DNA from: a virus
Taxonomy: Duplodnaviria; Caudoviricetes
DNA: 64,000 nucleotides
Strand: one strand, 5' to 3'
Virus record (IMG/VR): IMGVR_UViG_3300021387_000334
Location: 1-64,000 of that record
The notes under the pieces: generated by a model
What the model was told of the DNA's origin: nothing
The model's database searches: none
The model's input: only the letters and a program-made list of their open reading frames with translations
Shown: one piece after another, positions 253 to 35,600 of the stretch
How the letters are laid out: each line of letters opens with the position of its first letter
Numbering within the stretch: the stretch's first letter is position 1
Program-made: the position numbers and the translations under genes

Positions 253-458
253 AGTCAATAAAGGAAAAAGCAAATGAGTATGCAAAGGACTACTTGTTTA
301 GCCCATTGCCGCAAAGAGCACCAAATGTTCATTTCTAGGCAGGCGCAAACTATGTGCTTGAGTGCATAGAAGAAGCCTTAAATAAATCTTTTGATGAGCT
401 ATCAATTAAAGATGGCTATTTGGAAGCAAGAAAATGTATAGAACAACTAAAGGAATAA
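249..458 (+). pseudogene. small phage ORF interrupted by an in-frame TAG at 336-338
   Basis: ATG249 MKSIKEKANEYAK...VHF*AGANYVLECIEEAL...EQLKE TAA458. The frame continues with a typical F-x-AGA motif across the TAG. Confidence 0.5.
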
Positions 459-463
459 GGTGT

Positions 464-718
464 ATGAAAAAGATTATTCTATTAGCACTTACCGCCTTGA
501 TGATGGTGGGGTGTAGATATAAAAGTACCGGTGCAAACATTAGGGAAGCCAGCAATGCTGTGATAATAGTTGATGAACATACTTTAGATAGTTGTGAATA
601 TTATCCTTCCTACGGACACAAAGGTAACTGCCGCTTCTGTAAGGAACGCAGGCAGAAGGAACTGAAAGAGTTGGTTGAGCAGGTCGTGAAAACACGGCAG
701 GCAAATCCAGAACATTAA
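464..718 (+). CDS. small putative lipoprotein
   Basis: MKKIILLALTALMMVGC: basic N-terminus, hydrophobic core and lipobox-like VGC. ATG464 fits better than 434. Confidence 0.55.
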   Translation: MKKIILLALTALMMVGCRYKSTGANIREASNAVIIVDEHTLDSCEYYPSYGHKGNCRFCKERRQKELKELVEQVVKTRQANPEH

Positions 719-4237: not shown

Positions 4238-4268
4238 GAGGAAGGTTGTTAGCCTTCCTCTTTTTTTT
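4238..4268. terminator. intrinsic terminator between convergent genes
   Basis: GAGGAAGG-N7-CCTTCCTC followed by a T8 run. Confidence 0.75.
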
Positions 4269-4662
4269 ATGCCTTTTCGTAAGTATAAATTGCAATCCAA
4301 TCCTTGCCACCACCTCCTTCTATTCTTTGGATAACAAGTCTGCTATTAGTCAATTGCTTGATTGTATAAGTGGCCGTAGAACTGCCATAACTAATGACGA
4401 GTTGATTTCCCGATATCTGGAACTTTCCTTTTGCGCCTGTATAATAGACGCAAGACCCATCTTCGAAGAATACAAGATTAAGTTGATGTTTTGATGTTTC
4501 GTAGATTTCTTCCGTCTCAACCCTGGCATGCTGTTCTGACACGCAATTCCAACTGCCATAAATACTGCTTGGTGTTATTTGATTACTCTCTGCTCCGTCA
4601 TCTTTGGAACACGAACACAAGAGAGCCATCAGGCATACACAAAATAATAATGTTTTCTTCAT
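4267..4662 (-). CDS. outer-membrane lipoprotein with lipocalin-like domain (moron)
   Basis: MKKTLLFCVCLMALLCSCSKDD lipoprotein signal, IYGSW lipocalin GxW motif, own promoter and terminator. Confidence 0.75.
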   Translation of the reverse strand: MKKTLLFCVCLMALLCSCSKDDGAESNQITPSSIYGSWNCVSEQHARVETEEIYETSKHQLNLVFFEDGSCVYYTGAKGKFQISGNQLVISYGSSTATYTIKQLTNSRLVIQRIEGGGGKDWIAIYTYEKA

Positions 4663-5374: not shown

Positions 5375-5662
5375 TTATATATTTGATATTTGTATCGTTA
5401 CTGGCGTTTCGGTAGTAATAATCTTGATGTAGCGGGCTTCGGTGGCTCCATAGAGCCGGATGCGGAAACTGGGGCCAGCCCACTTTGTAATGAGACTCTT
5501 CGGATATGGGCCGTCTATCTTCTCCGCTTTCTTGATAACGAGTCGCCCTTTCGCGGGCAGTTCCAATTCGAGCCATGCGTCACCCGTCAGGCAAAGCGTC
5601 TCACTTACCCAACCGTTGGCCTCATCGCTCCAGGCACCGTTGATGGTCGTTATCTCCTTCAT
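5375..5662 (-). CDS. hypothetical virion protein (95 aa)
   Basis: Abuts or overlaps its neighbours in the head operon. Confidence 0.65.
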   Translation of the reverse strand: MKEITTINGAWSDEANGWVSETLCLTGDAWLELELPAKGRLVIKKAEKIDGPYPKSLITKWAGPSFRIRLYGATEARYIKIITTETPVTIQISNI

Positions 5663-6372
5663 CCGTTACGTCCGATATTCATTTTGGCTATCTCCAGCAT
5701 CCTTGCACTACGGGCATCGTTATAGGCAGAGAGCAGAAGATAAGCCAGATAGTAGATAAACGCCGTCTTCACCTTGGGAGGCAGAGGGTAATGAACTTGT
5801 TTGTCATCATCCGTCCCCGTAGTAAAGGAGTTGTCGCCTACGTCTGCCACATAGGTATAGGTGGCGAGACCCGTAGGCCACACTTCCAGTTGCCGTTTGT
5901 TGCGGTTGATAATGACGGCCTGCGGACGGTCTGCGGTGGCCTCTGCTCCGTTTGGATCGTAAAGTTGCAGATATTCATCCGAGTCCTCAGAGATAGGATT
6001 GATGACGGCTCTGTGCCAGCTCCAGCACCTTACCCTCGCCAGCTTGATAAAGTCTGTAGGGAGGTTGATATAACCGCCACCTGTGGTAGCGATGGGAGTA
6101 GGATTTATGCCATCCACGTCAACAAGGATTCCCGTGTCTACAAGCTGGCCGTCGCGCGTTTCGTCACTGCCACTCAGGAGTTCGGCAGGGCCGTAGAGGC
6201 AAACCCAGCGGACGGCATCACCAATCTTCGACCTGATGATGTTGTTCATCAGTCCGTTGTCGGTGGTGGCGTCGCCGATGTCGTAAGCCGACGCATCAAG
6301 GAACTCGGCAGCATTAAGCGATTCCTCATCAATGCAGAAGCGGACGGCCTCTATGATTTGCTCTACGGTCAT
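5659..6372 (-). CDS. head-tail adaptor (T7 gp11 / P22 gp4-like)
   Basis: N-terminal helices, LPTDF motif, C-terminal IYYLAYLLL helix, and position after the capsid gene. Confidence 0.55.
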   Translation of the reverse strand: MTVEQIIEAVRFCIDEESLNAAEFLDASAYDIGDATTDNGLMNNIIRSKIGDAVRWVCLYGPAELLSGSDETRDGQLVDTGILVDVDGINPTPIATTGGGYINLPTDFIKLARVRCWSWHRAVINPISEDSDEYLQLYDPNGAEATADRPQAVIINRNKRQLEVWPTGLATYTYVADVGDNSFTTGTDDDKQVHYPLPPKVKTAFIYYLAYLLLSAYNDARSARMLEIAKMNIGRNG

Positions 6373-6847: not shown

Positions 6848-8542
6848 TTAGGCTGCAAGGTCGGAGCCTGTATAGGTCTCCCATGCAGTGCCGTTATAGA
6901 TAAGCACGGATCCCCTCTCGTAAGTGACTGCCTGAGCGCCCTCGCCAACGGTCACGTCTGAGGTCAGCGCAATCTTCATATTCTTGGCAGGGGTCTTGGG
7001 CAGGTGGTTCGAGCTGACAATCCAGTTCACGATGCCCTGGGTCATGTCGCCAAACATCTTGTCCTCGGGACCTACGATGATGCTGTTGTAGCCCTTCAAG
7101 CCTACAGCATCGGCCATAATCTCGATGTGACGCTTGGCCAGGCGGATGTCGCCAGCACCCTTCGACATGTCGTTGGTCATGTTGCGCTTGCCCTCCTTGA
7201 TGTAGTGGATGGCATTGTCGAGGTCGAGTACAAACATGTAGTCCGACTTGCCCATGAAGTCAAGAGTCTGATCCCACACGAAGTTAATCTCACCAAAGGT
7301 GTCGGTGAAGCGACGGAAGGTGAGGTCGAAGTCCTTGGCCACGGAGAAATGAATCTCGCGGTTCTTACCCGGGTCAATGTTCTCCAGACGCTCGATAGCG
7401 TTCTTACCGCAGAAGGCAAACGAACGGTTCGAGGTGGCGAAGTCGGTGAACTGAAGCTTGGAGATAGCTACGAGGTCTGACAGCATGTACTCACTACCGA
7501 TAGCGTAGTAGTTGGGAATCTGAGGCAGAATTCCCTCACTGTAGAATACGTCCTCGATGGCACCGTCCTCAGTGACGCGCTTCTTCTTGGCCATCACACC
7601 CATCCAGTACGAGCGCTCAATGCGCACGTCGTTGAGGATGGAGGCATCGCGCAGAAGGTCTTTCACCTTGAACGGGTACTTCTTCTTCATCTTCTCAAAC
7701 TCTTCGGTGAACAGCACGTTCCAACCCTTCTTCTGAAGATAGACTTCCTTCTCGCGGGGCTGGAAGTTGTCGGGAGTGACAAGCAGCTGCGACTCCGACA
7801 TGGCATTGGCCATACCCAGCACGTAAGTGCCTGCTGCAATAGCGGGAACGGTACAATCCTCCATCTCGTTGTTCACCTGACCAGCGGTAGCAGCGGGGCC
7901 GTTGATGGCCATCAGTGTCAACTTGGTCTTGGTGCGCTCCACCACCTCCAATACTAGGCAGTTGCCGTCATGCTCCGTCTGCGAACCGGGTTTGTAGCCG
8001 CCCATAGAGGGGACAGCGATGGTGTCGAACTTACGGAATACGCCAAGATTGCCGGAGAAGTTGTTCTTCGTCAGCTCGATAGAGTCACCTGCAGCAATAG
8101 CAGCGGTGATAGTACCATCCAAGGTCTCACCACCCACGCGGGCATGCTTCACGGCGTAGTTCTGCACCTTACGCTCCTTGGCCACACGACCCAGCAGGCG
8201 CATGAACGGTACACGATAGGGCTTCAGTTGGGTAAGGGTCTCTTCGCGTTCCTCTTCCTCCAGACCGCCCTCGCGCATCTGGGTGGCACTGGCCTGCGTT
8301 CCCGTCAGGTTCTGACCGTCGTGCTCACCGCCAGGACTCTGACGGTCGCTCTTGTCTTCCTCAACTACTTCCTTATTATCAACGTCGGTATGAGTGGCTA
8401 CGTCGCCGCCCTCGTCACCGATTTGGGTAGCGGTCAAATCACCAGCTGCGGCCATACCGCCACCACCCGAAACAACAGCGAGCACGAAGAGCAACAGGCT
8501 CAACACGCTCCAAATCTTCTGATACTTTTTCATTGCTTTCAT
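6848..8542 (-). CDS. major capsid protein (HK97 fold inferred) with an N-terminal hydrophobic anchor, 564 aa
   Basis: Follows the scaffold-like gene, is followed by a strong terminator and lies next to the portal. VYLQK...RIERSYWMG segment is reminiscent of SU10/DUF5309-type capsids. Confidence 0.7.
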   Translation of the reverse strand: MKAMKKYQKIWSVLSLLLFVLAVVSGGGGMAAAGDLTATQIGDEGGDVATHTDVDNKEVVEEDKSDRQSPGGEHDGQNLTGTQASATQMREGGLEEEEREETLTQLKPYRVPFMRLLGRVAKERKVQNYAVKHARVGGETLDGTITAAIAAGDSIELTKNNFSGNLGVFRKFDTIAVPSMGGYKPGSQTEHDGNCLVLEVVERTKTKLTLMAINGPAATAGQVNNEMEDCTVPAIAAGTYVLGMANAMSESQLLVTPDNFQPREKEVYLQKKGWNVLFTEEFEKMKKKYPFKVKDLLRDASILNDVRIERSYWMGVMAKKKRVTEDGAIEDVFYSEGILPQIPNYYAIGSEYMLSDLVAISKLQFTDFATSNRSFAFCGKNAIERLENIDPGKNREIHFSVAKDFDLTFRRFTDTFGEINFVWDQTLDFMGKSDYMFVLDLDNAIHYIKEGKRNMTNDMSKGAGDIRLAKRHIEIMADAVGLKGYNSIIVGPEDKMFGDMTQGIVNWIVSSNHLPKTPAKNMKIALTSDVTVGEGAQAVTYERGSVLIYNGTAWETYTGSDLAA

Positions 8543-8563: not shown

Positions 8564-9355
8564 TTAATCTTCGTTCACCCAATCACGGAGCGATTCCTTC
8601 TTTTCACGTTTCGGCGCCGGACGGCTGCTGCCCTGCGAGAAAGATGGCGGGGGTGTCTGTCCGTCGTCAAAGGTCTTCAAGCGGTTAGCATGCTTCTCGT
8701 TGCGGGCCTGCATGGCGGCTTCCTCGCGTGCGTTCTGCATGTCGGTGTCGTAGTTCATGGCGTGCATCATGGCTACCCATGTGTCTTTCCCAACCTTGCC
8801 TTGGAAAGCGGGTGCGAAAATATCATCCCAGAAATGCTCCCACATACGGTCAATCTGCTCATCGCTCAGACCGAACTCCTGCTGAACGGAAGTAAGGGCG
8901 TTGAGTGATTCGTCTATGGCGGCATCCTTGGCCTTCTCTGCCTCTTCGCCGTCAATCTGAGCTTTCTGCCAGTTCTTGAATTTCTCGTCCACCTGTGCCA
9001 TTAGTTCGGGATCGTCGAGTGCGGCCTTGATGTCGATGCCGTTCTCTGTCAACCAAACCAGCGGATTTTTGTCAGGATTCTCTGCCAGGTCTTGGAACAT
9101 GGCTGCAATCCAGCGATTCTTATTCAGTGCTTCAGACAACTGACTGCCCGACTTCCTTAGTTTCCTGTAGTTGTCGCGCTCATCAGCCATGCGGCCGTAG
9201 CGTGCTTCTTTATCCTCAAAGTCCACGTCGGGATTATCCTCGCCGAACATGGCGGCATAGCGGTCTCTGTTTGGTCGGGCTGGCTGTTCGGCGGGCTGCT
9301 GCATTGCAGCGGCTTCCTGAGCCTGTTCTCCGTTTTTCTTCGTTATTTCTGCCAT
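8564..9355 (-). CDS. capsid scaffolding protein
   Basis: Acidic, alpha-helical protein with a basic/helical C-terminus, directly upstream of the capsid gene. ATG9355 preferred because the TTG at 9376 lies inside the promoter. Confidence 0.65.
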   Translation of the reverse strand: MAEITKKNGEQAQEAAAMQQPAEQPARPNRDRYAAMFGEDNPDVDFEDKEARYGRMADERDNYRKLRKSGSQLSEALNKNRWIAAMFQDLAENPDKNPLVWLTENGIDIKAALDDPELMAQVDEKFKNWQKAQIDGEEAEKAKDAAIDESLNALTSVQQEFGLSDEQIDRMWEHFWDDIFAPAFQGKVGKDTWVAMMHAMNYDTDMQNAREEAAMQARNEKHANRLKTFDDGQTPPPSFSQGSSRPAPKREKKESLRDWVNED

Positions 9356-9373
9356 AATGTAAGATTTATGGCG

Positions 9374-9415
9374 CAAATATCTGAATTATTCGTCCCGCCT
9401 CTTCCGTGTTTTCAC
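9374..9415 (-). promoter_or_regulatory. late-type promoter of the head operon (GTGAAAACACGG-N22-GATATTTG)
   Basis: Motif at 9404-9415 on the minus strand, 22-nt spacer, -7 variant at 9374-9381. Confidence 0.75.
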
Positions 9416-9504: not shown

Positions 9505-9526
9505 CGCCCATAAAGTAAGAGTGAAT

Positions 9527-11497
9527 ATGGCAAAGATACGAACCCTATCACAGGCTACAGGCCGCATCCACGATTCCGTCAAGAGCCGGCATCGCCGCAT
9601 GTCTGTGGATATTCCCGTCCGCAGGCGCAGGAGGGTTGACTACGACCTCGTGCTGCGCTGTCAGCAGGCTTGGAACAACCTAGACGATGCCAGAAGAACT
9701 CGCGAACGGGTGAAGGAATATGTCTATGGCGACCAGTGGGGAGATATTATCCACTACCGTCACGGACAAATCACGGAGCGAGAGTATATCCAGCGCAAGG
9801 GTAATGTACCATTACAGAACAATATCATGATCTCCATCCTTGGCTCTGTCACAGGTCTCTACACCAAACAGGCTGGAGAGCCAAACTGCTTTGCCATGCG
9901 CAAGGATTCCCAGTGGCTCTCGGATATGATGTCGGCCACCATTCAGCAGAACTGGCAAAAGACAAAGCAGATGGATGCCCTGAAAGCAGCAATGGAGGAC
10001 TTCTGTATTGGCGGCATGGCTATTGCCCGTGAGACCTATGAGGAAAAGATGGGTCGCCGTGTGGCTTGGACGGACTTCCCGAATGTGAATCATGCTTTTT
10101 GGGAGGCTGGCACAGACCCGCGCATGTCAGACCTACGAATGGTTGGTCTGCTACACGATGCCACCAGAGGCGAACTTTACTCCAAGTTCTGCAACGAGAA
10201 ATACGGCTGGACGGTCGCTGAGATCAATGAGGTCTTCAATATCCCGGACCCTCAGGATTATCCGGGCTATCCATCCAGCTCCGGTTATCAGCAGAACGAG
10301 CGCGAAAGTCTCTCCGCACTCTCTTTCGACAAGGCATCAGACAACGGCCTCTACCGTCTGATTGAGGTGTGGACGCAGGAGACCAAGACACGGTATCAAT
10401 GCTATGACCCATTGGCCACCAAGGCCGACGATATAGAATTTCGCGTCGAGGTGAAGGACATATGGCGAATCCAGCAGAAGAACCAAGAGCGCATCCGTCA
10501 GTATCAGGAGATGGGAATCCCCGAAGAGGAATGGGCTCTGATAGAATACGAACTGATTGAGGATTTGTATTGGTACTTCACTTATCTGACTCCCGATGGC
10601 ACTGTGCTTGCCGAAGGTGAGACTCCATACGAATCGAAGACTCACCCCTTCTCCATCAAACTCTATCCTTACGTCAACTCGGAGATACACCCCTTCATGG
10701 GTAATATCATCGACCAGCAGCGCTACATCAACCGCCTGATTATCATGCACGACATGGCAGCACGCTCGGCTGCAAAGGGTATCATGATTTTCCCAATAGG
10801 CAATATCCCCGATGGAATGTCAAAGGAGGATATAGCCGAAGAGATTACCGAATACGACGGACTTCTATTCTTCGAGACGGATAAGATAAATCCTGCTCTC
10901 CGTCCAGAAATCATCACATCGGGAGCCGTGCAAATCGGTACGCAGGAACTCCTGCAGATGGAGCTTAACCTTGCACGCGACATCACCAACGTCAGCGGGG
11001 CACTCCAGGGCAAGACTCCCTCTGCCGGAACTTCTGCTGCCCGCTACGCACAAGAGACGCAGAACGCTACCACTTCTCTCGCATCCATCCTCCATGACTT
11101 CACTTCGTTCATGGAGTCGATTGCACAGAAGAAGTGCATGATGATCAAGCAGTACTACCGTCACTCAGACCTTGTAGTATCGCGCGACCATACTATCTTC
11201 TACGAGTACGACAATCTCTCTGCCCGTGACGTGGACTTTGAGGTGACTATCAAGGAGTCTGCCGCTACCGCTGCCTACCGTACCTACATCAACGACACCG
11301 CTCTCCAGCTCCTACAGATGCAGGCCATCAACGTCAAGCAATACCTGGAGGTGGTCAACCTCCCCTATGCCGACGAACTCCTGCAAATCATCCAGCGTGA
11401 CGAGGCACAGCAAATGGCCATGCAGCAGGAACTCATGGCGCAGGGGGTCAATCAGCAACAGGTTAATAACGCACAACAAATGTTACAGGCCGCATGA
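9527..11497 (+). CDS. portal protein (P22-like)
   Basis: About 656 aa, with IIDQQRYINR and GALQG-type portal motifs and a Q-rich C-terminal barrel helix. Divergent from the scaffold/capsid genes. Confidence 0.8.
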   Translation: MAKIRTLSQATGRIHDSVKSRHRRMSVDIPVRRRRRVDYDLVLRCQQAWNNLDDARRTRERVKEYVYGDQWGDIIHYRHGQITEREYIQRKGNVPLQNNIMISILGSVTGLYTKQAGEPNCFAMRKDSQWLSDMMSATIQQNWQKTKQMDALKAAMEDFCIGGMAIARETYEEKMGRRVAWTDFPNVNHAFWEAGTDPRMSDLRMVGLLHDATRGELYSKFCNEKYGWTVAEINEVFNIPDPQDYPGYPSSSGYQQNERESLSALSFDKASDNGLYRLIEVWTQETKTRYQCYDPLATKADDIEFRVEVKDIWRIQQKNQERIRQYQEMGIPEEEWALIEYELIEDLYWYFTYLTPDGTVLAEGETPYESKTHPFSIKLYPYVNSEIHPFMGNIIDQQRYINRLIIMHDMAARSAAKGIMIFPIGNIPDGMSKEDIAEEITEYDGLLFFETDKINPALRPEIITSGAVQIGTQELLQMELNLARDITNVSGALQGKTPSAGTSAARYAQETQNATTSLASILHDFTSFMESIAQKKCMMIKQYYRHSDLVVSRDHTIFYEYDNLSARDVDFEVTIKESAATAAYRTYINDTALQLLQMQAINVKQYLEVVNLPYADELLQIIQRDEAQQMAMQQELMAQGVNQQQVNNAQQMLQAA

Positions 11498-13303: not shown

Positions 13304-13933
13304 ATGGATATAAGACACAAAGAAAAAGGCTACCATCCCTTGCGCTTCGACCGCCCGGAGCCAGACGATAACTGGCCGTACCGCCATCAACCAAACAGTG
13401 GCGACGATAGGCAGTACGGCATCAAGTCCCCCAAGTTCGAACGGCATCTGTTCATCCGTCGAGACCAGATATTCTTTGATATAGATGCACAGCTTGGCAT
13501 GTTGGCCGATGCCCGCAAGACTCCCGATGGCACACAGGACGATACCCTGACGAATGCCACCACCAAGTATCAGCAGATGTTCTACCGCTGGATAGACTCG
13601 CACATCGGAGAGGCCAAGACCACAATGTCGGCTTTTGTTCTCGAAAAATTCCGTGAGTCGGCCATGAACTCCATCAAAGACCGTGATGAGATTGACATCA
13701 CGCTTCTGATGCCCGAATGGTACGACGACACCACATTCCCACAGCTTTGCGACAAGGTGCATGAATACGTGGTTGCTGCCACCCTGGCTGATTTCTGTAC
13801 CATGCGCCTCACCACGAAAGATCCTGTGACCATCGACAAGGTAAACCAGAAGATTGAGTCGCAGGCAGAAGTCAAGAAACTCGTCAATGCTGCAAAGCCC
13901 GGACGTATCTCAAAACCCTTCAAACCCTTTTAG
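13304..13933 (+). CDS. putative tail ring/connector protein, paralog 4
   Basis: ITLLMPEWY...LCDKVHEYVVAATLADF pattern parallels the upstream paralogs. Confidence 0.55.
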   Translation: MDIRHKEKGYHPLRFDRPEPDDNWPYRHQPNSGDDRQYGIKSPKFERHLFIRRDQIFFDIDAQLGMLADARKTPDGTQDDTLTNATTKYQQMFYRWIDSHIGEAKTTMSAFVLEKFRESAMNSIKDRDEIDITLLMPEWYDDTTFPQLCDKVHEYVVAATLADFCTMRLTTKDPVTIDKVNQKIESQAEVKKLVNAAKPGRISKPFKPF

Positions 13934-13937
13934 AATC

Positions 13938-14432
13938 ATGGGAGAAATCAAGACATATATCATTATGGTAGTGGGGGCCTTGTTCACGCTCCTTAGTCCG
14001 ATTCAGAATTTCATGTGGGCAATGGTCACTCTTTTCGGAGTCAACTTTCTCTTCGGTCTCGTAGCTGCCATTGTCAACAAGGAGGGATGGAGCACCAAGA
14101 AGGCTCTGATGTTCTTTGCCTATTGTTTCATCTTCTTCGTTACCGCTGCCTCTTTCTTCGTGATAGGCCATTTCATGGACGAAGAAGACCAGGCTGTCGC
14201 AGTCGTTAAAATCTTGTGTTATGTTGCCATTTATATCTTTGGCACCAACATCTGTCGCAACTGGCTCAATATCCTGAGCAAGGGCACGGCATGGTACAAG
14301 TTTGTTGATCTTCTATACTACGTCCTTTCCGTCAAGTTCATCGAGCGTTTCGACATCGTGAAGAAATGGCAGGACGAGCGCAACAACAAGCCCTCAGAAG
14401 GCCGCACTATCCTCGACAAAGACGATAACTAA
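13938..14432 (+). CDS. holin
   Basis: Several hydrophobic segments, charged C-terminus, directly upstream of the lysozyme. ATG13938 follows the upstream stop. Confidence 0.75.
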   Translation: MGEIKTYIIMVVGALFTLLSPIQNFMWAMVTLFGVNFLFGLVAAIVNKEGWSTKKALMFFAYCFIFFVTAASFFVIGHFMDEEDQAVAVVKILCYVAIYIFGTNICRNWLNILSKGTAWYKFVDLLYYVLSVKFIERFDIVKKWQDERNNKPSEGRTILDKDDN

Positions 14433-14438
14433 AGTCCA

Positions 14439-14462
14439 GTACACTGCGATATTATCGCAGTC
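14439..14462 (+). repeat. GTAYACTG-N11-CAGTC hairpin, copy 2
   Basis: GTAC ACTGCGAT ATT ATCGCAGT C, between holin and endolysin. Confidence 0.7.
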
Positions 14463-14476
14463 AAATTCCCAGAAGC

Positions 14477-14956
14477 ATGAAAAAAATGACCACCAGCAGG
14501 CTCGGCCTGCGCTTAATAAAGGACTTTGAAGGCTTGCGCCTTGGTGCATACCTCTGTCCCGCCGGAGTGCCTACCATCGGCTACGGCCATACGAAAGGAG
14601 TCAAGCTTGGCCAAGTAATCACCCACGAACAGGCAGATGATTATCTGATAGAGGACATTGCACCATTGGAGAGACATATTAACGCACTCGGCATCAATTT
14701 CCGTCAGGAACAGTTCGATGCCCTTGTGTCGTGGCTCTTCAACCTTGGCGTGGGCAATTTCAAGAAGTCCAACCTTTTGAAGCGCATCCAGGACGATTCC
14801 TCAGATCAGTCCATTGCCGCTGAGTTCATCAAGTGGATTTACGCAGGCAAGACCCCATTGGCAGGCCTGAAGAAGCGGAGAGTGGCCGAAGCCAATATGT
14901 TCGTAGGCTACGAACTCTACTGTCTCGACGACAAAAACAACATCAAGAAGAAATGA
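14477..14956 (+). CDS. endolysin, GH24 (T4/P21-type) lysozyme
   Basis: EGLRLGAYLCPAGVPTIGYGHT gives the E-x8-C-x5-T catalytic triad. QEQFDALVSWLFNLG and GLKKRRVAEA motifs are present. Confidence 0.92.
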   Translation: MKKMTTSRLGLRLIKDFEGLRLGAYLCPAGVPTIGYGHTKGVKLGQVITHEQADDYLIEDIAPLERHINALGINFRQEQFDALVSWLFNLGVGNFKKSNLLKRIQDDSSDQSIAAEFIKWIYAGKTPLAGLKKRRVAEANMFVGYELYCLDDKNNIKKK

Positions 14957-23670: not shown

Positions 23671-26600
23671 TCAATCCTTCCCTACTCCATCAAGCAAGTC
23701 CACCACGGCCTTCACCTGCTCATTGTAGAGCCTCCGCAGTTCCTTGCGCTCCCTGCCTTCGGCCTTGTTTGCAGCCTTGTTAATCTTTGATAGTTGCTTG
23801 TCGGCCTCACGAACGATTTCCATCCTTACATAGTCTTCGCCCGTGACGATGTTCTCCAGTTTCATCAGAGCCATCGGGTCTTCGGCGGCGGCACCCTCAT
23901 AGCCTTTGACCGCATCGTGAAGCTTCTCAGCATCAGCCTTGTACTTGCGGTACTTGGCCTGCGTGCGGTAGTACTGAGTCCTGTCATCGCCCTGCTGCAC
24001 GAAGGCTTTCACGCCCTCAATCTTTCGGATATTGAAGTCGGGAGCCTCACCCTCTACGAGGAGGTCTTTCAGGTCTTTTCCTGCACCTACGAGCGTGTTG
24101 CCGAGGAACTTGCCGGGGCCACCGCTGTACTGCTCCCACAGATACTGCACGATGGCGGGGTTCACCTCCAGCTTGCCTCTCACGATGTCATCACCTCCAC
24201 CAAGCTCATGCAGGAGCTTTGAGGCATTCACCAGAGCGGGATTCGTACCAGAGTACACCATCTGATACTCAGGGGTGAACTGGTCGTTCTGGAACTTGTC
24301 TTCCCGGTAGATAGGCCTGCCCGTCCAGCCGAGGTTCTGCCCGACGGCCACCAATGGAGCCAGTACGGAGAAGGTGCGGCCTACCAACTCGTCAACGGGG
24401 TCTTCCATCAGTCCTCCCTTGGTTATCTTGGTGTCGATGTCTACAGGCGAGAAGGTGTTCATGATGCCCACCATCTCCTCGTCGATGCTGCGGTCTACGG
24501 GCTTCAGGTTCGGGGCGTAGGTAAGTCCGGCAAACATATCGCCAAGGGCGAGGAAGGCTGCAAGTTCCTGTCCGATAGGTATGGTAATGAAGTTGTTATT
24601 GCCGATATAGATACAGATATTCTTCCGTCGGGTCCACTCCGGCAGATTGGCGTATGGATCATCATCGTCGCCCCCAAAGGCTGCGGCCAATGCCTGATTG
24701 ATCATCGGCAGCGCAAGTCCGAAAGCAAACGGAGGCAGGGCATACCTGGCTGCCCACTTGGCGATATATCCCTTGTTCAAAGAGCCATCGGCCTTCTGGA
24801 AGTTCTTAAACGTGGTAGCGATAGCCTGCACGGTGGCATTGAAGAATATTCTGCCCTCACCGAGTATCTGCGAGGTCACACCGAATGCCTTGGCTGCATC
24901 CTCAACCACCTTGTTCTGGCTCTTGAATCCTGCTGTCTTACTGCCTGCACCCTTCTTGTTGAAGTTCACAGTTATCTCCTTGGCATCGTAGGCAGCGCGA
25001 GCCTTAGTCCGTCCGGCATAGTGTCTCGATGCACGGAAGGTGGCAAAGCGGGCATTGTTCTCGATACCCTCATTCAGCGCTTCGATGGCTCCCAGGGTGT
25101 ATTCCCATACCTTATTATTAAGTCTGACGGGCTTACCATCCTTCTGCTGCTTATACAGTTTCTCCATCTGCTTCTGAATATCGTCTATCTTCTGCATCTG
25201 TACGAAACCCGTGATACCGCCGTTATCCATGAAATCCTTGAAGTCGCGCTCCATTTCATTATCCATATTGAGCGTTCCCTCACGATATTTCCTGAACAGG
25301 CCAACCATCTTGAAGAGCGACTGACGGTAGTACTTGTTGGCACGCTTTGCATAGCCACGTCCCTCCCTCACGCCAAGCATCGTCCTGAAGTGAGTCCAGT
25401 CGCGGAACATATTCCTCAGAGCGAACGTAGGAGAGTAAGAGGTGAATACTGAGGCCATGAAGTTCTTGACGGCATTGTTCCACTTCGAGAACACATTCTT
25501 GCCACGCTCAAACCTCAGCTGACCATTCAGAGCCTGCGCCATTCTCGGGTTGCCGACAACTATCATCCGTTTCTGCTGGCCGTTGATCCTCACCTCAATC
25601 ACATGCTCCGACTTCTTTTTCTTATCCATCGGCACATAGTCGAACTTCTCCTTACCCCTTATCTTGATGGCCTTGTTCTCCTTGGCGAGTTCCTTCATCT
25701 CCTCTTCAAAGGCAACAACGGCCTGCCGGATCTCCTCTTCATCCATATCGTCGTTGATGTCGGGATAGGCTTCCTCAAACTCTCCAGTGGCCTCATTCAG
25801 TTTTGCCCAAGTGTCACTCAGCACCACCAAGTCGTTCGGATTGGTCTGGCACAGCCTGTAGAGCTTCTGATTCACAAGGTTCTGATTGCAGTCAGAGATA
25901 GCCTTATACGTCATGGCAAAGATAGTCGAGATAGGATAGTTTGCCTCAGAGCCACGTCCTTTGGCGTGCTTCAAGAGCCCTCCGATATAGGATTTCTCCT
26001 TGCCCTTGGCCGTGAAGTACTGATACATATCCTCTCCCGTGTCGTTCTTGAATCCCCGCATGGGCACGTACCAGTGGAACATTTGTTCTATCTTGTCTAT
26101 CTGCTCGTCGCTGCGCATGCCGCTCTCCCGATAACGCTCCAAACCATAACGGGTGCAGTTCTGTATCTGCTCCCATAAGGTATCCACATTCTCTGCCTCG
26201 ATAGCATCCTCAGTATCCATCAATTCTGCGATAATCTCGTCTTCGTCATATTTTCCGTCCTCGTCACCATACATAGCTCTGAATCCAGAATAGTCATTCT
26301 CTGAAGGATTATACGCTCCATCTATGTTGTCAAGAATGAAATTAGTCAGTCCGGCAAGATAGTCGGCAAAGTTAATATCTCCTGTTTGTAGGTCGAGATA
26401 ATTCTTCTGCTTCAAGGCAACCAATCGTTCTTCTATGCTGTCAATATACTCTTTGTGTGCCTCCTGCAAAGCTTTGGCAAGTTCCTTCTCCTTCTGTTCT
26501 TCGGTCTCAATATCGCCATCCTCAAACAGGGTCTCGATAACCTCTGCCTTGTGGTCGAAGATGTCCTGCTCTTCGGGGTTCAAGTCCTCATACTTACGGA

Positions 26601-29600
26601 TATTCTTGTTACGCTCCCGCTCTAACCAGTCTCTTACGAAGAACTCCCTGTTACGCTCCAAGCCGCTCTTGGTGTAGACGTATCTGTCAACGTCACCCCA
26701 ATTCATGCCAGTGCGGTTCATAATCTTGTTGATGGTGTCGATCAACGGGTCACGCAGCATGGAGTTGAACAAGTCCTGCTCATTCTTGTTCTTGCCGTGC
26801 ATCAGATTCTCAGCCATATAAGCATTCTGACTGTCTGGAATAGCCTTGTCATGCGCGATAGCGTTCTGTGCCGTCTTTAGCGCAATCATACTGTCCTGAT
26901 AAGCCTCAGTAAACACAGTCTCTACTCTGTTCAGACGCTCGTCATAGACTGCCTTCTCGCTATACTCCATCGGGTCATCAATATCCTCGCTATAACCTGC
27001 GTCCATATCTGAGCCTCGTTTTGTAGACCGCTGTAGTACAGCGGTTCTATTCTCCCGCTCCAACCGATGCAAGAAGGCAGCTCTCTTGATGGCACTCATA
27101 GGCTCACCCTCTCGCAGTTGATTCTCACTCAACCAGAACAGATAGCGAACATCAGTAATGGTCGGGTTAGTCCTATAGCCTATCTCCCTGAGTATGTCGC
27201 CTACCCATCCGGCAAGCTTCTGCCAAAGGGTGCGTCTCTCCTGTCGCTCTGCCACAACCTTCTCGGCTTCTCTTGCCAACCACTCGTCGATGGCTTTGTG
27301 CAGACTCCAGCCGTTGACCTGCATCCTGCGGGTTACCCAATCACCCATTTCTCCGTCCTTGTGCTGCATCCATAGACGGTTGAGCAACTTTCCGTAGTTA
27401 TCTGCTCCAAGCAGTTCTCGGAGTCCTACGTGGGCTACTGTCTCATGCCAGATGGTTTGCTCTGCCTTATAGATGGAGTCGATGTCGGGCAGATAGAGGT
27501 AGATACGACCGTTCTCAAACCATCCATACACCTTCTTGCCTTGCTTGTGCATATTCTCGATATGCTCACGGCGTGCCTTATTTCTTACTCCGTTGATGGA
27601 GGTGATGACTGTTGTGCGGTTACGTGTACCAAGCTTGTTCAGAAGGTTCTCCACATGCTTGCGGATATTCTCCTTGTGTCTGGTAGACTGAGGCTTTGCC
27701 TTTGCTTCTCCCTCCGAATAGCCGCTGTTCTTGGCTTTCTTGCCATAAACAGAGGAATAGGTCTTTCCCTTGTTGGGGCCATCAACTATCTTGCCTCGGT
27801 TGTCGGTTTCTACAAACTTCACACCTTCCTTCTCCAAGGCTTCACGCTGGGCAGGGGTAACGACATTGGTAGGCATTACCTCTACCTTGCAATTGATCTG
27901 CTTGGCTATGCTCTTGGCTACTTCCTCAGTAGGCACAATCCTTACTGGCTTATCCCATCTTGAAAGAATTACTTCGCGGGTTCCTGTCAACTGCCCCTGG
28001 ATGATACCTGCCTTCCACTCCAAACGGCCTACGGCATCCTTGGCTTTCTCTGCCTTATAGCCGCTGGTCAGTTCGCTTTCGGGTACTTCCACCTCTACAA
28101 CAACGAGGTTCGGACGGTTCTGCGCCTCGCTGAACTGGTCGTTGAGCATGGTGGTGGAGGTATGGATATAGGGGTTGTAGGCTGCAAACAGACTCTTGCC
28201 GTTGTCCTTGGTCAACTTGAATACCCACTTGCCGTTTCTCTTCACGGCTTTCTCTGGGTGCTCGTCTGACTTCTCCCACTTGCCTAACTCTATTGGCTCA
28301 CGCAACTGTCCGTCCTGCTTGGTGGCCATCGGGGGATAGAGCTTGCCGTCAATAAGACTCATGGCACGGTACACCTTTATCTTTGGCTCTCTCTCCAGTC
28401 GCTCAATGACTTCTTCATCGGTCTCTTCACTATATCCACCCTCTAAAGTGTTCAGTTCATCCTCTTCAATATCCTCCGAATAGCCGGAGTCAATATCGTT
28501 GTTGGTATCTTCTTTCTTCGACTGCACGGTAACGCCTAACTCGTCCAAACGCTTCAATACCTTATCAAGATTCTCTTCCTTGAAGTCGGCTTTCAATGCT
28601 GAACTACCCTCAAACTGTCCGTCCATCAAACTCAACAACACTTTGTCGTTAAAGTACTTCTCGCCCTTCTTCTTCGACTTCGGTACTTTCAGGGTATAGC
28701 TCATCCAGCTGCCATAACCATCAGCCTTGATGGTCACGTCACCGTCCGCAGAGGTGATCTTCCTGTCTTTACCCCAATCATCCAAGTCTGCCTTGGCAGA
28801 GGAAATAGGATTCTGACTGGTCAATGCACCTGGATCAAATCTTTCTCCCATCAGCACGCCTTGACGAATTTCACCCGTGTCGGTGGTATAAGAAATGAGT
28901 TTGCCACCTTGCCTCTGCTTCTGGAGTGAGGTTAATGCTTTAAGCAAATTGCCGGTAATGATATAGCCTTTCTTCCTCGTGGCGGTAGAGGTCAGCTTAT
29001 CCCAATTATCCACATTCTGCTCCAGCACCTTCATCATATTGGCAATATTACTGCCAAAGAATCCACTACGCGATTGTGCGCTCTGCTGAACAATGATGGG
29101 CTTGATGTCTCTCTTCTCACCATTGCTCTGCTTCACCATACCGCTGATAGGAATGGTTATCTTCCTGCGACCGTCCAAGGTGGCAAAGGAAATCGTACTG
29201 GCGGCAGTAGAGAAGTTGTCGCTTATCTTGATGTCTATCACTTTACCAAATGATGGTTCAAAACTCAACTCGCCTAAGTCGTAGATGTCGGTAGGCAGCG
29301 CATATACCCCATCGGTAGTGAAGGTCTCCAAGGCATCCACAAAGGCTTGTTTCTGCTTGTCAACGGCATCCAGAGCGGCCTGCAGTTTCTCCATTTCCTC
29401 CTTATAGAAATGGTCGTACTGATACTGACCGTTCTTCTCTATCTCAGCATCGGTCATTCCGTTCTTTTCCTGCGCTTTCTTGGCTCCCTTGATATACTTC
29501 TCTTTCTCGGCCTGCGCTTTCTTCTCGGCTCTGGCGGTAATGGTGTCGGTGGCATCCTTCTTCTTCTCTGCCTCCCACTTATCCAGCCTCTCCAGCACGC

Positions 29601-32600
29601 CCTGCTTGTATTCATCCCAGGTCTTGCCGCCAAGGAGTCTCGACTGGCTCTTCTTTAACTCTTCTGCCTTCATGGGCTTCTTCAAAATATCCATTTCCAC
29701 TTCCTCCACGTAGGAGTTATCGGCAAACGGATTCTTGCCACCCGGCTCAACACCCTCTTCCCATACTTTCTTACCAAGGGTCTTGGCTCTCAATGGCATT
29801 TCGGTAATTTCCAAGTCGTTCTCGCCCATTTCATTTAAGCGGTCTATCTCGGCTTGATACAGGTCGCCGATTTCGGCGAGCATCTTCTCCTGCTCGGCTA
29901 CCTTCAACAGGGCCATTCTTCCCAATACCTTGCTGGCAGTCTTGCCTGCCTCACCATCCTTTGTAGCATTGGCGATAAGCGTCTCAGCGGGCATCGTCTC
30001 AAAGCCTTCTCCCCATTTCAGCGGGTCAACCATCTTCGCGGCAAGGTCGGTATGTTCTGCCAAATACTGGATAACAATGTCATCACCATACTTGTTGATG
30101 ATGTCCTGCACCTGCATTTCGTTGAACTTCGACTTCTGCGAACTGGTGGTATTGGCATCCAGCGAACGGAGTTTTGCTTTCAGCATCATCAACAGACGCT
30201 GCTCACTCGGTATCTGAGAAACCACGTACTCATACATACCTCGCAACACCTGTCCCGTGCGGTCGATACGTCCACGTATCTGTACCTCATCGTTCACGTC
30301 ACCTTGTGCCTGGGCGACAATCATCACGCGCTGACGCTGGTCATCAAACTTGCTCGAAGCATGAAGCGAGATACCTGTGCCTGCGCTCTTGTTCAGTATC
30401 AGCACATCAAGCTTTCCATTGTTGAAGTCTGCGGCGGTACGTTTCTTGTCGCTATCTTGACGCTTCACACGCTTCACAGTGCCATCTTCATTGTAGACGA
30501 ACTCCTGCTTTCTACCTGTAAGCTCTCCAACTTTGTAGCCTGCTTTCTTTAACTCGTTCTTGATAACGTCAATCGGGCTGAGGCTCAATCCAGAAGAAGC
30601 ATTCTCAATGGCATCCATGATTTCACGATACCTTGCCTGCCCAGCCTCGCTCAACTCGTCGAAGGGTATCATTTCGTTGGTGCTGTTACCAAAGGCATCT
30701 TTCTTGGTGATACGGAGCGTGCCTTGCAGACCTTTCTTTAGGTTCACACTCAGGTCGGGCATTTCCATATCTTCACCTGTAGACACTTCATCGGCTGCTC
30801 CTTCATTGGTGTTTGCCAATGCAATAACGGGCTTATGACCTTGCTTCAAGTGCTCAATGGCTCGCTTGGCTGTCTCTTCGGCTTTCAGAGAGAGTAGTAC
30901 CTGCTGCACCATGTTATATGTACGTGAGGCGAATGGGGTGTTGTTGATGCCCATATCCCTTGTGCCTGGAGTGTGGTCAACCTCACCCTGCTCGTCTGCG
31001 GCTTCGTCATTCTTCTTATTGACGATGGGGTCTACATACCTGCGCTGGAAGTCGATGATGTCATTGAAGAGTCCTATAATGGTATCATACTGCTGACGCT
31101 GCTTCTCAATCACGGCTTCGTCCTCGATACCCTTCCAGTCGATAGTAACACCTGTCATGTCTCGCTCACGGCGTATCATCTGTCCTGCCTCGGTCAAGGC
31201 TTTTGACATAATCTCTTGGAACGTAGCACCGCCTTGTTTCACAGCATCAATCAACTCGCCTATCTTCACTCCTGCCTTGGCAATGGCGGTCTTTAGTGAA
31301 TAGATAGGCATATTGCCTGGACGCTTGGCAAAGGTGGCAGAAAGGAAGGTTACACCTTTGGCCTTTGTGGTGATATATTGCAGATAGCCACTCACGGCAC
31401 TTGTCTCACCTCCTGCATTGTGGCTTTCGTCCATAATCACATAACTATTCTCTGCAAGACGTTCAAGGGCATCGCGTTTAGCCTGCGAGTTATAGGCTCC
31501 CGTTGTCGGACTCTTCTTGCCGAAGTTACGTGCCTTCTTCTGCCCTTCCTCATAGACCATCGTACCCCCCTTGAAGCTATCGTAGGTAGTGACAATATAG
31601 TCGTACTCAGGGGGTAACTTCCCGTATTTATTGATGTAGTCAACTACTCGCTTCTGCTCCTTGTCGCTCGGCCGCTTATAGACTACATTGCCATTCTTAT
31701 CCGTCACATCGGCTGAATGTTCTTCATCGTCTGCACTCCAGATGAAGGGTCTTAATCCAGGACTACCGATGTCGCAAAGGTCGCGGTACATGTCGGAGAA
31801 CAGTCCCTTCTTCACGGTTATGAATACAGGGCAACCACCCTTCTTTACACCGTAGCGAATAAGAGCTGCTGCCTGTCTGCCTTTACCGATACCTGTCTGG
31901 TCGCCAATGATAAAGGCATTGCCTTCGTTCATCTGATGGATAGCCATTGCCACAGAGTCTATTTGCTCTGCTGCCAATCCTCCATGCTTTTCAGGTGATT
32001 GAGAGCCGTGATGCAAATCTTCAACAGAAGAATATCCAAGTTCTTTAACTAAGAACTCATCTACATCGCCTAATTCTTCAAGTGCTTTCTTTACAACCTC
32101 TGCCTGTTCTGCGGGCATCTGAGACTGCAAAGAATATGGATTCTTGCTTTGTTGTCTATATGGAACTTTCTCAGTACCTAATCGTCGTACTTCGACACTT
32201 GGCCGTGATCCCCCTCCGACGGATACGTCCACCCTTCCATCAGGTCGCTCAGTGTCGTTTCGTCTGTTAGGTACGTTTCCTCCTTGCTCTGCTGATGAAG
32301 GGGTGCTCCCACCTGGCTGCGAAGCCGTTGACCCGGTTCCGTGAACCACATCACCTCGTTCGCCCACGCTTGTATCTGTTCCTGTGTCGGCTCCCTTTGA
32401 GGTACTTCCGACACCTCCCGATACAGACTGTCCGCCTGAATCCAGTAGTTGACGTTGCTTGCTGCCTCCTTCGCTTCGTACATTTCGTACTCCCGTCTGA
32501 GTAGTGTTTCCAGCATGTCCGTTATCATGCTTTCCGTCACTCTCTCCGCTTTCTGTGTCGTGAACACTAGCGGGCTTGTTGCTGTCAGATAATATGTCAT

Positions 32601-35600
32601 CGTTTACTCGTTTATATAATTCGTCATAACTGTTAACTCTCTCCGCTCTTGCCTTCTGAATGGTAGGTGCAAAGCTTCTCGGATTGAACTCCTTGCGTCC
32701 GTTGATGAGTATCATCCGCACGGGGAATCCCGTTCCCTGACGTGAGTAGAGCGTCTTGCCGTCCATGTTGATCACGTCTACCACGTTGTAGTGGGCATAG
32801 AGGTAGTTGAAGAAGGCTCTGTCCTTACCCTTGATGCTGCCGTTCTGATTGTACTCGGTATTGCCTCCAATGATAATCGCGGCTCGCCCATCATCCTTCA
32901 TCGACTCCAGGGCGTTGATGGCCATCTGGTGCTCCAACCCCGAAATCTCATACAGACCGTCGTAGGTCTTTGCAGGTACGTTGCCAAATGGAGGATTAGT
33001 TACCACCACGTCGTACTTCTTCTCACCGAATGGCTGTGTTCCGTCTTGGCTCGTCACCTCCGCAAATCCCTGCTTGGCAAGATTCGACAGACGCATCTCG
33101 TCAATATCGTTGACGTGCATTGCCTCCTTTGGCAGGTTGAGTGTCAGCATACCGTTTCCGGCACTTGGCTCCAGTCCGCTCTTAACTTCCTTGCCCTCTT
33201 TGAGGAACTTACCCATGAGGAATGCCATAGGCGCAGGGGTCGAATACTGCTGCTTGTTGATGCGGTCATTGTCCCTTGCGTTGAGGCTGGGCTGACCCTC
33301 ATACAACTTCACTATCTTCAGGAACTTCTTCTCGTCCGTCAGACCTTCCTTGTTGGCTATCTCACGGGCAAGGTTCACAACCTCTGTTTCAATCAGCTCC
33401 TGCAGGTCGGTGTCCGAAAGGTTCTCTATCCCAAGTTCCTTCGCTATCTGCTTATAGGCACTCAGCGGCTTCGGTTGGTCGCCCCAGTTGACAATGCCTT
33501 GCAACTTTGCACGTATTTTCTTGGTCAGTTGTGTAAGTTTATGCTGCCTCTCGGCAAACTCCGCTGAGTCACCTTCCAACTTACTTGCTGGTTTCTGCTG
33601 CGAAGATACAACATTTTCCGGATCGTTGTTCTCGTCTTTGTGTTCGTTAACAGTCTGGTCGGTAGAATTACCATTCTTTAACCTCTCGGCATGCTCACTG
33701 AGCCTCATACGCTGTCCGTCAACGGTGTATTTCTGCTGCCATACCTCATCGACAAACTCACCGATAATGTCATCCTCCCAACCAAGCACTTCTTTGAGTT
33801 TCTGTCCAATGCTATCGGACATCTTCTTGCTCCACGTCTGCACATCATGCACACCGCTCTTGATATAGGCATAACCCACCTTTGAAGCCAGTCGTAACAG
33901 GTCTTTGAGGAACATTCTCTGCGCCTCGTTGGTAAGGGTAAAGGCATCAAGCAAACTGGCCTGTGCCTTATCGTTACCCTCCAGCCCCTTGCGCATGAAC
34001 TTGTCAAGGACGTTTGAGCCCTTGGCATTATCAAGGAAGTCGTTAAACTCCTTCAATGCATCGTCAATGTCCTTCTGGTCTTGTGACTTCTGCTCTTCAC
34101 GGAATGACTGTGCTGCCTGCTCAATAGCGGCCATTGGGTCATTTTCTGCTCCCTTTTCAGCCATATACCTTTCCATAATTCGGGTAGCCTTATGGTAGCC
34201 GATTTTAAACTTCCTCTGTAATGCAGAACTGTATGGTTTCTCCTGCTGGTCAAGCCAATCTTTTGCCACTGGGTAAAATTCTTCATCGGTAGCACTCTGC
34301 CAACTGTCTCTTTCTTCTTTCTTTTCTTTTGCTGGCTCGTTTCCTTCTTTTTTCTGCCGGTTTTCAGAAGAAGTTTTCTGTGCCCTCTCATAGATAGAGT
34401 CATAGTAGAAGCGGGAGATGGCACTATCATCCTCGCCACGAAGGAAGTCGATGGCGTTCAGCTTCTCGTCCTCAAGAGCCCCCATGTCAGCCATGATCTG
34501 CTCTTCCGTCAACGGATGGGATGCCAGATATTCCTCACGGCTCTGGGGCTGTCCAGTCACCGTACCTGTAGCGTCAGCTGCGGGTGTAAAACTAGTCTGC
34601 CGCCTTTCATTATCCAAGGCTCCACGAATACGGCTTTTCCGCTCTGCCTCTGATTGCAGTTGGTCAAGCTTCTTCTGAGCATCTTGCAATGCCTTGCGCT
34701 CTGCGGCGGTACGACGATTGACACCCTCTTTGGTTCTGTCAGTACCACCCATATCATCAAAGGAGAATAATTGCCCTGGCTCTTGGAATGCCTCATCGTC
34801 TGAAAACATATCCGTTGCCCGGTCACTCTCCTTGGCTTGTGCCTTCTGTAGGTCGCTTGCTGCCTTGTCACGTTCCTTGATGGCTGCATCAATCTCTTGC
34901 TGCAACTGCGCTATGACATCGGCGATAATCTGCTCCTCCTTCTCATTACGAGGCTGGAGGTATTCGTCTCGTTCAGTACCCTGCGGTACTTCCGCAGGTG
35001 TCTCGGTTACTACTGGCTCAGTACTTCCTTGGCTTTCTGTGCCTGCTGCTCCCGCTGCTGCTGGAGTCTCTGGTTTCTGCTCTTGTGGAGTTTTTGTCTC
35101 AGTTCGTTCCACGATAGTATCTCGCCCATCGTTCCGTCCTTCTTCTTGTAAGGTATTGGCATAATCTAATATTGTTTGAATTTTACTTTTTACATCTTCT
35201 GGTGTCTGACTATCAGAGAATACGAGAATTGTTCCATCATCATCACGAATAACGCCAGTTGTAAGGGCATAATCACGGACCTCGTTAACAGTCTCTTCAT
35301 CAACGAAATCGCCACCATACACCTGAGAAGTGAGGTCAATCCACTCGTCATCGCTCATGCGGTCGGTGTCTACCAACTTGATTTGTGGCATACCCTCCTG
35401 CTGCATCAACTCTTGAACGAGTTTCATCAGCTGGGTAATGGGCGAATCGGGAATATCCTCACCCTCAACAGGTGCTGCAAATGGCAGATTGGCTTCCATC
35501 TGAGCTATTTCCTCATCGGTAAGTGGTGCTACCTCTACCTCGGCTGGCTGCTGCGCTGCTGCCTCCTGCTCCATCTGTTGCTGGGCTTCAGGGGCTACAC

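Follow-up and report, generated by a model that had tools for sequence, protein, structure and literature searches.

Tailed-phage capsid proteins are regarded as soluble and cytoplasmic, and their known maturation is carried out by soluble prohead or host proteases. The locus described here raises the question of why the major capsid protein of such a phage would begin with a segment laid out like a secretion signal, and how this segment would be removed. We analysed a 64-kb window (positions 1 to 64,000) of the 73-kb record IMGVR_UViG_3300021387_000334, which derives from a gut Bacteroidales phage; in this window the major capsid protein gene (P0001; 6848–8542, minus strand) encodes a protein of 564 amino acids that opens with the leader in question. 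Comparison of related genomes indicates that the leader and the gene of a minimal rhomboid protease (43931–44425, minus strand) are inherited together and lost together. We lean, by a modest degree, towards the interpretation that the leader is a membrane-targeting propeptide, the removal of which would be coupled to the phage rhomboid.

The leader of the capsid protein and its conservation

Residues 1–33 of the capsid open reading frame (ORF), encoded by the minus strand at 8444–8542, read MKAMKKYQK-IWSVLSLLLFVLAVVS-GGGG-MAAA. An n-region with four lysines (MKAMKKYQK, residues 1–9, 8516–8542) is followed by a hydrophobic h-region (IWSVLSLLLFVLAVVS, residues 10–25, 8468–8515), which is a predicted helix by Kyte-Doolittle hydropathy and by the structural model, and by a glycine run with a [small]-[M/L]-[small] end motif (GGGGMAA, residues 26–32, 8447–8467), the predicted processing site. 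The highest 15-residue Kyte-Doolittle mean in the leader is 2.83, reached over residues 10–24. In the AlphaFold2 model residues 6–24 are helical, confidence is low between residue 26 and about residue 105, and the body is confidently modelled from about residue 110. Between leader and body lies an acidic linker (residues 34–105, 8228–8443), predicted to be disordered from its composition and from predicted local distance difference test (pLDDT) values of 40–70, with 20 Asp/Glu versus 5 Lys/Arg among its 72 residues. The layout is that of a signal peptide, with a basic n-region, a hydrophobic h-region and small residues at −3 and −1 (G29-M30-A31 or A31-A32-A33). All elements of the design described in a first-pass annotation of this DNA, namely the basic n-region, the 16-residue hydrophobic core, GGGG, MAAA and the acidic linker, were recovered in the ORF translation.

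No further ORF in the window carries a leader of this type, and the portal and scaffold proteins are without one. Among the approximately 60 larger window ORFs, N-terminal hydrophobic segments otherwise occur only in two lipoprotein-type ORFs, in lysis or membrane ORFs and in the rhomboid. The lipoprotein-type ORFs (434–718, plus strand, and 4267–4662, minus strand) have leaders that terminate in Cys.

An exhaustive homologue search over 1.84 billion cluster representatives showed that the leader design is kept in every full-length homologue among the 120 closest (49–100% identity). It is present in about 94 of 117 family representatives, down to approximately 23% identity, and on both sides of the deepest split in the family tree (117 rows). 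Across 29 distinct 22-codon leader blocks the ratio of nonsynonymous to synonymous polymorphism (pN/pS) is 0.42 with many synonymous changes, and many of the third-position changes preserve V-T-G-G-G. As judged from these comparisons, the leader, which takes up the first 31–33 residues, is translated, coding and under purifying selection, and its conservation is far beyond chance. The alignment of homologous N-termini proposed in the first-pass annotation thus bears its description out, since most homologues carry the leader with both the hydrophobic segment and the Gly-rich end. The same annotation had considered that the true start might lie downstream of the hydrophobic segment. However, of 60 related loci, 19 have a Leu codon (CTC, CTT or CTG) in place of that for Met30, among them L001, which is 97% identical, and because of these Leu codons an internal or dual start at Met30 was rejected; together with the purifying selection on the leader, they also dispose of a downstream start.

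In 75 leader-bearing representatives aligned on the end motif, the Met30 position is M in 54 and L in 21, and the residue after it is small in all 75 (A 50, G 9, C 7, T 6, S 3). Immediately preceding M/L, A predominates (40/75), position −3 being A, V, G, C, L, S or T in nearly all, so that the family motif can be written [A/V/G]-[M/L]-[A/G/C/T/S]. The three to four residues ahead of it are Gly, Ala or Asp. The mean net charge of the leader-bearing representatives is +2.5 in the n-region and −4.1 over the 30 residues after the motif.

Leaderless relatives indicate what this motif may mean. One well-supported leaderless clade (A4) is nested among leader-bearing lineages; its capsid gene, seen in 80 viral loci, opens with M-A-E or a close variant, and stop codons precede this start by a few codons. 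A second, separate leaderless lineage (P0140) has stop codons upstream as well. Both leaderless groups have their new start at the Met of the [small]-M-[small] motif, as can be seen by comparing sisters: leader-bearing P0162 (...GGGVLMAEATVV) with leaderless P0174 (MAEVDV), and leader-bearing P0148 (...FAMAEAMG) with leaderless P0140 (MAVDNN). Given that leaderless lineages restart at the motif Met, the part after the motif would be a complete working capsid protein, and the end motif likely marks the mature N-terminus. Some seemingly leaderless entries are in fact clipped gene calls, P0166 having the leader upstream and P0163 and P0217 starting within the helix. For the A4 clade, P0140, P0220 and P0269 such an artefact was rejected on account of in-frame stops upstream; P0220 and P0269, also leaderless, lie on contigs too short to reveal rhomboid status. 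As a separate observation, a frame of about 50 amino acids lies just upstream of the leaderless capsid gene in several loci (L086:1950–2160, L091, L098, L117, L134). Its end copies the capsid N-terminal arm motif (KGSAGL.TQ.PG..TTV.N...ATGGI.PGN), and the peptide is a candidate for a small decoy or helper.

The HK97-fold model and the gene context together identify the product of the 6848–8542 ORF as the major capsid protein, of the SU10/DUF5309 type, in agreement with the first-pass annotation. A fold search was needed because the capsid family profile, searched against PDB sequences, gave zero matches. The AlphaFold2 model, built on a 93-sequence alignment, has a mean pLDDT of 85.3, and its top Foldseek matches in the PDB are exclusively HK97-fold capsid proteins (Vibrio phage VP1 9in6_M, E 3.7e-22; crAss001 7qof_A, E 1.5e-14; SU10 7z48_F, E 7.5e-9). 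The structure prediction called for in the first pass thus returned the HK97 fold, its confident body setting in after the linker. The window protein itself has no SU10_MCP (PF17236) match at E ≤ 1 in Pfam; P0014, a homologue about 70% identical, matches this family with 32.4 bits (cut-off 24.1), and many capsid homologues carry a precomputed PF17236 match. The HK97 body fold is common to the window protein and the SU10, crAss001 and VP1 capsid proteins (PDB 7z45–7z48, 7qof, 9in6), with a sequence identity of 6–14% in a comparison that covers the body.

Within the head module the capsid gene also sits where expected: a scaffold-like gene precedes it, the portal and adaptor genes are close by, and relatives show the same order. 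It lies 21 nucleotides downstream of the scaffold-position gene (8564–9376, minus strand, 270 amino acids; phrog_22323, without named function), whose location is retained in all relatives examined, and two genes upstream of the gene for an SU10-type head-tail adaptor (5659–6372, minus strand; PF24175 SU10_adaptor, 31 bits versus a cut-off of 27). Divergent from the scaffold-capsid unit is the gene for a P22-type portal protein (9521–11497, plus strand; PF16510 P22_portal, E 3e-22; phrog_156), so that an SU10-type adaptor and a P22-type portal are found in one genome.

A phage rhomboid inherited with the leader

The candidate partner of the leader is a minimal rhomboid protease of 164 amino acids with six predicted transmembrane (TM) helices (43931–44425, minus strand). 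It matches PF01694 with 24.7 bits (cut-off 22.6; 22.7 bits in a six-frame search), a family matched by all 14 phage homologues (best E 1.5e-17). In these 14 phage rhomboids, which are 18–60% identical, H48, N50, H53, N57, G93, S95 and H137 are invariant. A profile made from them matches GlpG structures (E 5e-7) with HxxxN, GxSG and the catalytic His aligned, and S95, H137, H53 and N57 fall on GlpG Ser201, His254, His150 and Asn154. By this alignment the window rhomboid has the full set of catalytic residues. Its Lys and Arg residues are concentrated in the N-terminus, L2, L4 and the C-terminus, with nearly none in L1, L3 and L5, a pattern that fits the GlpG topology and, by the positive-inside rule, a predicted active site toward the periplasm. 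Rhombosortase is the top NCBIfam match of the phage rhomboids; an assignment to that family was rejected, since TIGR03902 has a cut-off of 84 bits and the window protein reaches only 12.9, its relatives no more than 31.5.

The rhomboid is found in all 26 leader-bearing viral records (5/5, then 21/21). These include three fragments of a clade about 25% identical in the capsid, in which the rhomboid lies within approximately 1.5 kb of the capsid gene. Metagenome contigs from another four clades (L178, L179, L183, L185) carry it as well, and L180 has an edge fragment of it. Both the rhomboid, already so named in GenBank, and the leader on the capsid protein are present in the cultured Bacteroides phages BF1-TP2 and BS-TP4; in a third cultured phage, BKO1-TP3, the homologous capsid gene matches the BF1-TP2 protein from its residue 4 onwards, with a coverage of 99%. 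In the clades of these contigs and cultured phages the rhomboid sits inside the terminase operon, 1–2 kb from the capsid gene, whereas in the window the two genes are 35 kb apart. Given this distance, the lack of a rhomboid in 21.7 kb scanned of a 33-kb contig of the P0130 clade (L177) is uninformative.

The rhomboid is absent from 20 of 20 complete (98–100%) leaderless genomes of the A4 clade, both with the phage-rhomboid profile and with PF01694, and as a control PF01694 recovered it in 9 of 9 leader-bearing genomes. Moreover, L183, with leader and rhomboid, is sister to L182, with neither, and L185, with both, is sister to L181, with neither. The gene order in L183 and L185 is portal, then terminase large subunit, rhomboid and a gene of about 130–140 amino acids, then scaffold and capsid. 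In L182 and L181 it is terminase large subunit and a gene of about 134–142 amino acids, then scaffold and capsid, the rhomboid being the sole missing gene. On this genomic comparison there are two independent joint losses of leader and rhomboid.

In the window, the rhomboid stop is overlapped by 4 nucleotides by the start of a terminase large subunit candidate (41775–43934, minus strand; weak phrog_5989 match, E 7e-4). The gene at the same position in cultured relatives carries Terminase structure notes. Two of these genes, L175:1882–3909 (BF1-TP2 gp60) and L176:1045–3141 (BS-TP4 gp7), stand in the slot of the terminase large subunit under the GenBank name 'tail spike protein'; given this position and the Terminase structure notes, they are probably misnamed. 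Upstream, the rhomboid gene is overlapped by 4 nucleotides by the gene of a multi-TM protein (44422–44904, minus strand), for which the searches run gave no family match. The same slot in other clades (L179:8496–8921, L182:8563–8991, L175:4351–4797) holds a soluble protein of about 140 amino acids in which SRFWVS and APxFY motifs are conserved and which may be a small terminase subunit. BS-TP4 gp5 (L176:468–689), annotated as 'Sec translocon subunit YajC', is unsupported as such: it has 73 amino acids and no hydrophobic segment, and there is no PF02699 match in the record.

Further away, and separate from the rhomboid block, the window has a holin-lysozyme pair at 13.9–15 kb (13887–14956, plus strand), consisting of a four-TM holin-like ORF with a weak Phage_holin_4_1 match and then a phage lysozyme (PF00959, E 2e-39). 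A single ORF of 5396 amino acids spans 23671–39861 on the minus strand. Equivalent giant genes in L178, L179 and L182 have PolyVal ART/kinase, helicase and LPD38 Pfam matches, like polyvalent injected proteins. An integrase-like ORF (54268–55413, minus strand) suggests a temperate phage.

Proposed removal of the leader and competing explanations

In the scheme that we favour, the leader would direct freshly synthesised capsid protein to the cytoplasmic membrane and would then be removed at or beside the end motif, in a step dependent on the phage rhomboid. The freed capsid protein would begin within a residue or two of the start of the leaderless relatives. The predicted N-in orientation of the leader is consistent with such a step, as it would place the Gly-rich leader end and the rhomboid active site on the same, periplasmic, side. 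Leader and rhomboid may together replace a prohead protease and its propeptide, which are seemingly missing from this genome: the 73-kb record gave no match at E ≤ 1 to S78 (PF04586) or ClpP-type (PF00574) proteases, in a search limited to those two families. Because no such protease was found, the pair may stand in for it. A tether might serve the timing of assembly, the siting of assembly at the membrane, or the hiding of coat protein from cytoplasmic sensors. Membrane insertion, the cut and its site, the rhomboid as cutter and the purpose of tethering are the parts of this scheme that we infer.

Several points weigh against this scheme. Only two independent contrasts with known rhomboid status are available, the other co-occurrence being largely shared ancestry, and a leader-bearing prophage (L184/L186) is without a rhomboid in the contig portion scanned, which ends inside the prophage. 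The end motif obeys the −3/−1 rule of signal peptidase I, so that the host enzyme could cut it. The TatA-type recognition motif of rhomboids consists of a small P1, a large hydrophobic P4 and a hydrophobic P2′ (PMC2941825). For a cut after [M/L]-[small], only P1 conforms, being small in 75/75; P4 is mostly G, V, A or S and P2′ mostly A, G or D, and no alternative register fits P1, P4 and P2′ together. Rhomboids also favour substrates with a periplasmic N-terminus (PMC7232013), and the leader charges predict the opposite, an N-terminus inside.

The same predicted orientation has a further consequence. DNA packaging into heads is cytoplasmic, and an N-in leader would imply a periplasmic capsid body, in a compartment in which no DNA can be loaded into heads. 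The linker was searched for Bacteroides O-glycosylation sequons, which would have hinted at exposure to the periplasm; none was found. The first-pass annotation had remarked that a Sec-like signal is unexpected on such a protein; neither its model nor the scheme put forward here reconciles the predicted export with cytoplasmic head assembly. We regard this contradiction as the most interesting open point. As to the first-pass suggestion that the leader is a tether removed by the phage rhomboid, it has gained comparative support from the strict co-occurrence and the two joint losses. However, the end motif fits signal peptidase I at least equally well, and the body would still be placed in the periplasm.

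We consider the main rival rather unlikely. In this reading host signal peptidase I would cut the leader at the A-x-A-like site, and the rhomboid would have a secondary role, for example ridding the membrane of the very large number of leftover leader peptides or freeing stalled precursors, an arrangement that would account for the co-occurrence of leader and rhomboid as well. The always small −1 residue, the small-type −3 residue in nearly all representatives, and the textbook-like n-, h- and c-regions with an acidic early mature region are as such an enzyme would have them. However, signal peptidase I does not require M/L at −2, and the near-invariance of this residue hints at a dedicated enzyme with its own recognition site. 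Cutting by the host would not relieve the problem of topology either, since the capsid body would likewise have to cross, or begin to cross, the membrane. The remaining alternatives, in which the rhomboid is a mere hitch-hiker, the leader an uncleaved anchor or the start wrongly placed, are less likely.

It is improbable, in our judgement, that leader and rhomboid are functionally unrelated, the rhomboid serving lysis, superinfection exclusion or host manipulation and the association reflecting shared descent and coincidence. Such a reading draws on the fact that the co-occurrence comes mostly from a few large clades, with two documented independent joint losses, and that the window rhomboid follows the multi-TM protein and a DUF6549 membrane protein. 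It is hard to reconcile with the location of the rhomboid in most clades, within the terminase operon and next to the genes for portal, scaffold and capsid proteins, or with both losses, in which only the rhomboid is gone from a conserved operon. The holin-lysozyme pair is elsewhere in the window, and the confinement of this type of leader to the capsid ORF likewise speaks against coincidence.

Still lower is the probability that the leader stays on the protein, either as a membrane or hydrophobic anchor that would, for example, hold procapsids at the membrane, or packed inside the shell. The helix is confidently predicted by AlphaFold2, and a precedent for work at the membrane exists in T4, where prohead assembly is attached to the membrane via the portal. 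However, two lineages dropped the leader and restarted exactly at the motif, which suggests that the functional capsid protein begins there, and the conserved small-residue motif resembles a cleavage site. We also know of no precedent in HK97-fold capsids for hundreds of hydrophobic helices per shell, which this arrangement would entail. Finally, there is scarcely any chance that Met30 is the true or main start, whether by a wrong call or a dual start, with the hydrophobic segment untranslated or confined to a minor isoform: leaderless relatives do start at the equivalent Met and gene callers sometimes picked it (P0166), but the Leu codons found there even in L001, the signal-peptide character that the 29 upstream codons retain to about 23% identity with synonymous variation, and the ATG at 8542, which comes 21 AT-rich nucleotides after the scaffold gene stop, all argue against it.

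Related systems and implications

The closest logic to a pairing of this leader with a rhomboid is that of GlyGly-CTERM and rhombosortase. There, a Gly-Gly-type motif, a TM helix and a basic cluster are served by a dedicated small rhomboid-family protease (Haft & Varghese 2011, PMC3237569); the pairing was recognised by co-distribution, the genes being adjacent where there is a single target, and prediction places the Gly motif where the helix meets the periplasm and the basic cluster in the cytoplasm (PMC3237569). Similarly, the phage leader and rhomboid are co-distributed and their genes are close by in most clades. In contrast to GlyGly-CTERM, the phage signal stands at the N-terminus with its parts in mirrored order (basic, helix, Gly), so that the chain would cross the membrane the opposite way, and its cargo is a capsid protein needed in the cytoplasm instead of a secreted enzyme.

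Activation by removal of an N-terminal piece is also known from rhomboids. AarA of Providencia stuartii cleaves off a short N-terminal extension of TatA, by which the inactive pre-protein becomes functional (Strisovsky et al. 2009, PMC2941825; PMC3712462). The activation proposed for the phage capsid protein would be of this kind, again with a small P1. However, the N-terminus of TatA lies outside and its TM helix survives cleavage, whereas the phage protein would lose the whole helix, and the phage leader is without the large hydrophobic P4 and hydrophobic P2′. With Sec signals cut by signal peptidase I the leader shares a basic n-region, a core of about 16 residues, small −3 and −1 residues and an acidic early mature region. 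It differs from them in that its passenger is a tailed-phage shell protein, its −2 residue is almost always Met or Leu, and its presence tracks a phage rhomboid instead of being generic to the host.

Coat proteins with removable N-terminal segments are themselves familiar. The HK97 delta domain is cut by the prohead protease, and the capsid and scaffold leaders of staphylococcal phage 80alpha are cut by the host protease Prp. The phage leader resembles these propeptides as an N-terminal coat segment of the precursor that is proposed to be gone from the mature shell, with a short conserved motif at the cut. Unlike them, it is a predicted membrane helix linked to an intramembrane protease, whereas the segments and proteases of HK97 and 80alpha are soluble.

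Full-text literature searches returned no paper linking a phage rhomboid to a capsid protein and none on a membrane-anchored tailed-phage capsid protein, and the paper describing BS-TP4 and BKO1-TP3 leaves the rhomboid unmentioned. The pairing of leader and rhomboid would be a variant on capsid propeptide processing and on a rhomboid with a dedicated substrate, neither of which has been described in this context. For annotation, it is worth noting that gene callers at times clip the leader, and that programs predicting secretion would wrongly class such capsid proteins as exported. Because cultured phages carrying the pair exist (BF1-TP2, BS-TP4, BKO1-TP3), the question is directly testable.

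The fullest form of our proposal remains tentative, and we would put it somewhat short of probable: a large family of tailed phages of gut Bacteroidales would make a membrane-anchored coat precursor that is freed by viral rhomboid intramembrane proteolysis, and the leader would represent a new, inverted class of rhomboid substrate. If true, this would be a rare natural pair of one rhomboid and one substrate, in which the substrate would be oriented unusually. BS-TP4, one of the cultured relatives, has been detected in 31% of 930 viromes (PMC12694917). If the proposal is true, a membrane step would be added to head assembly in widespread human-gut and rumen phages, a route of head building undescribed for any tailed phage.

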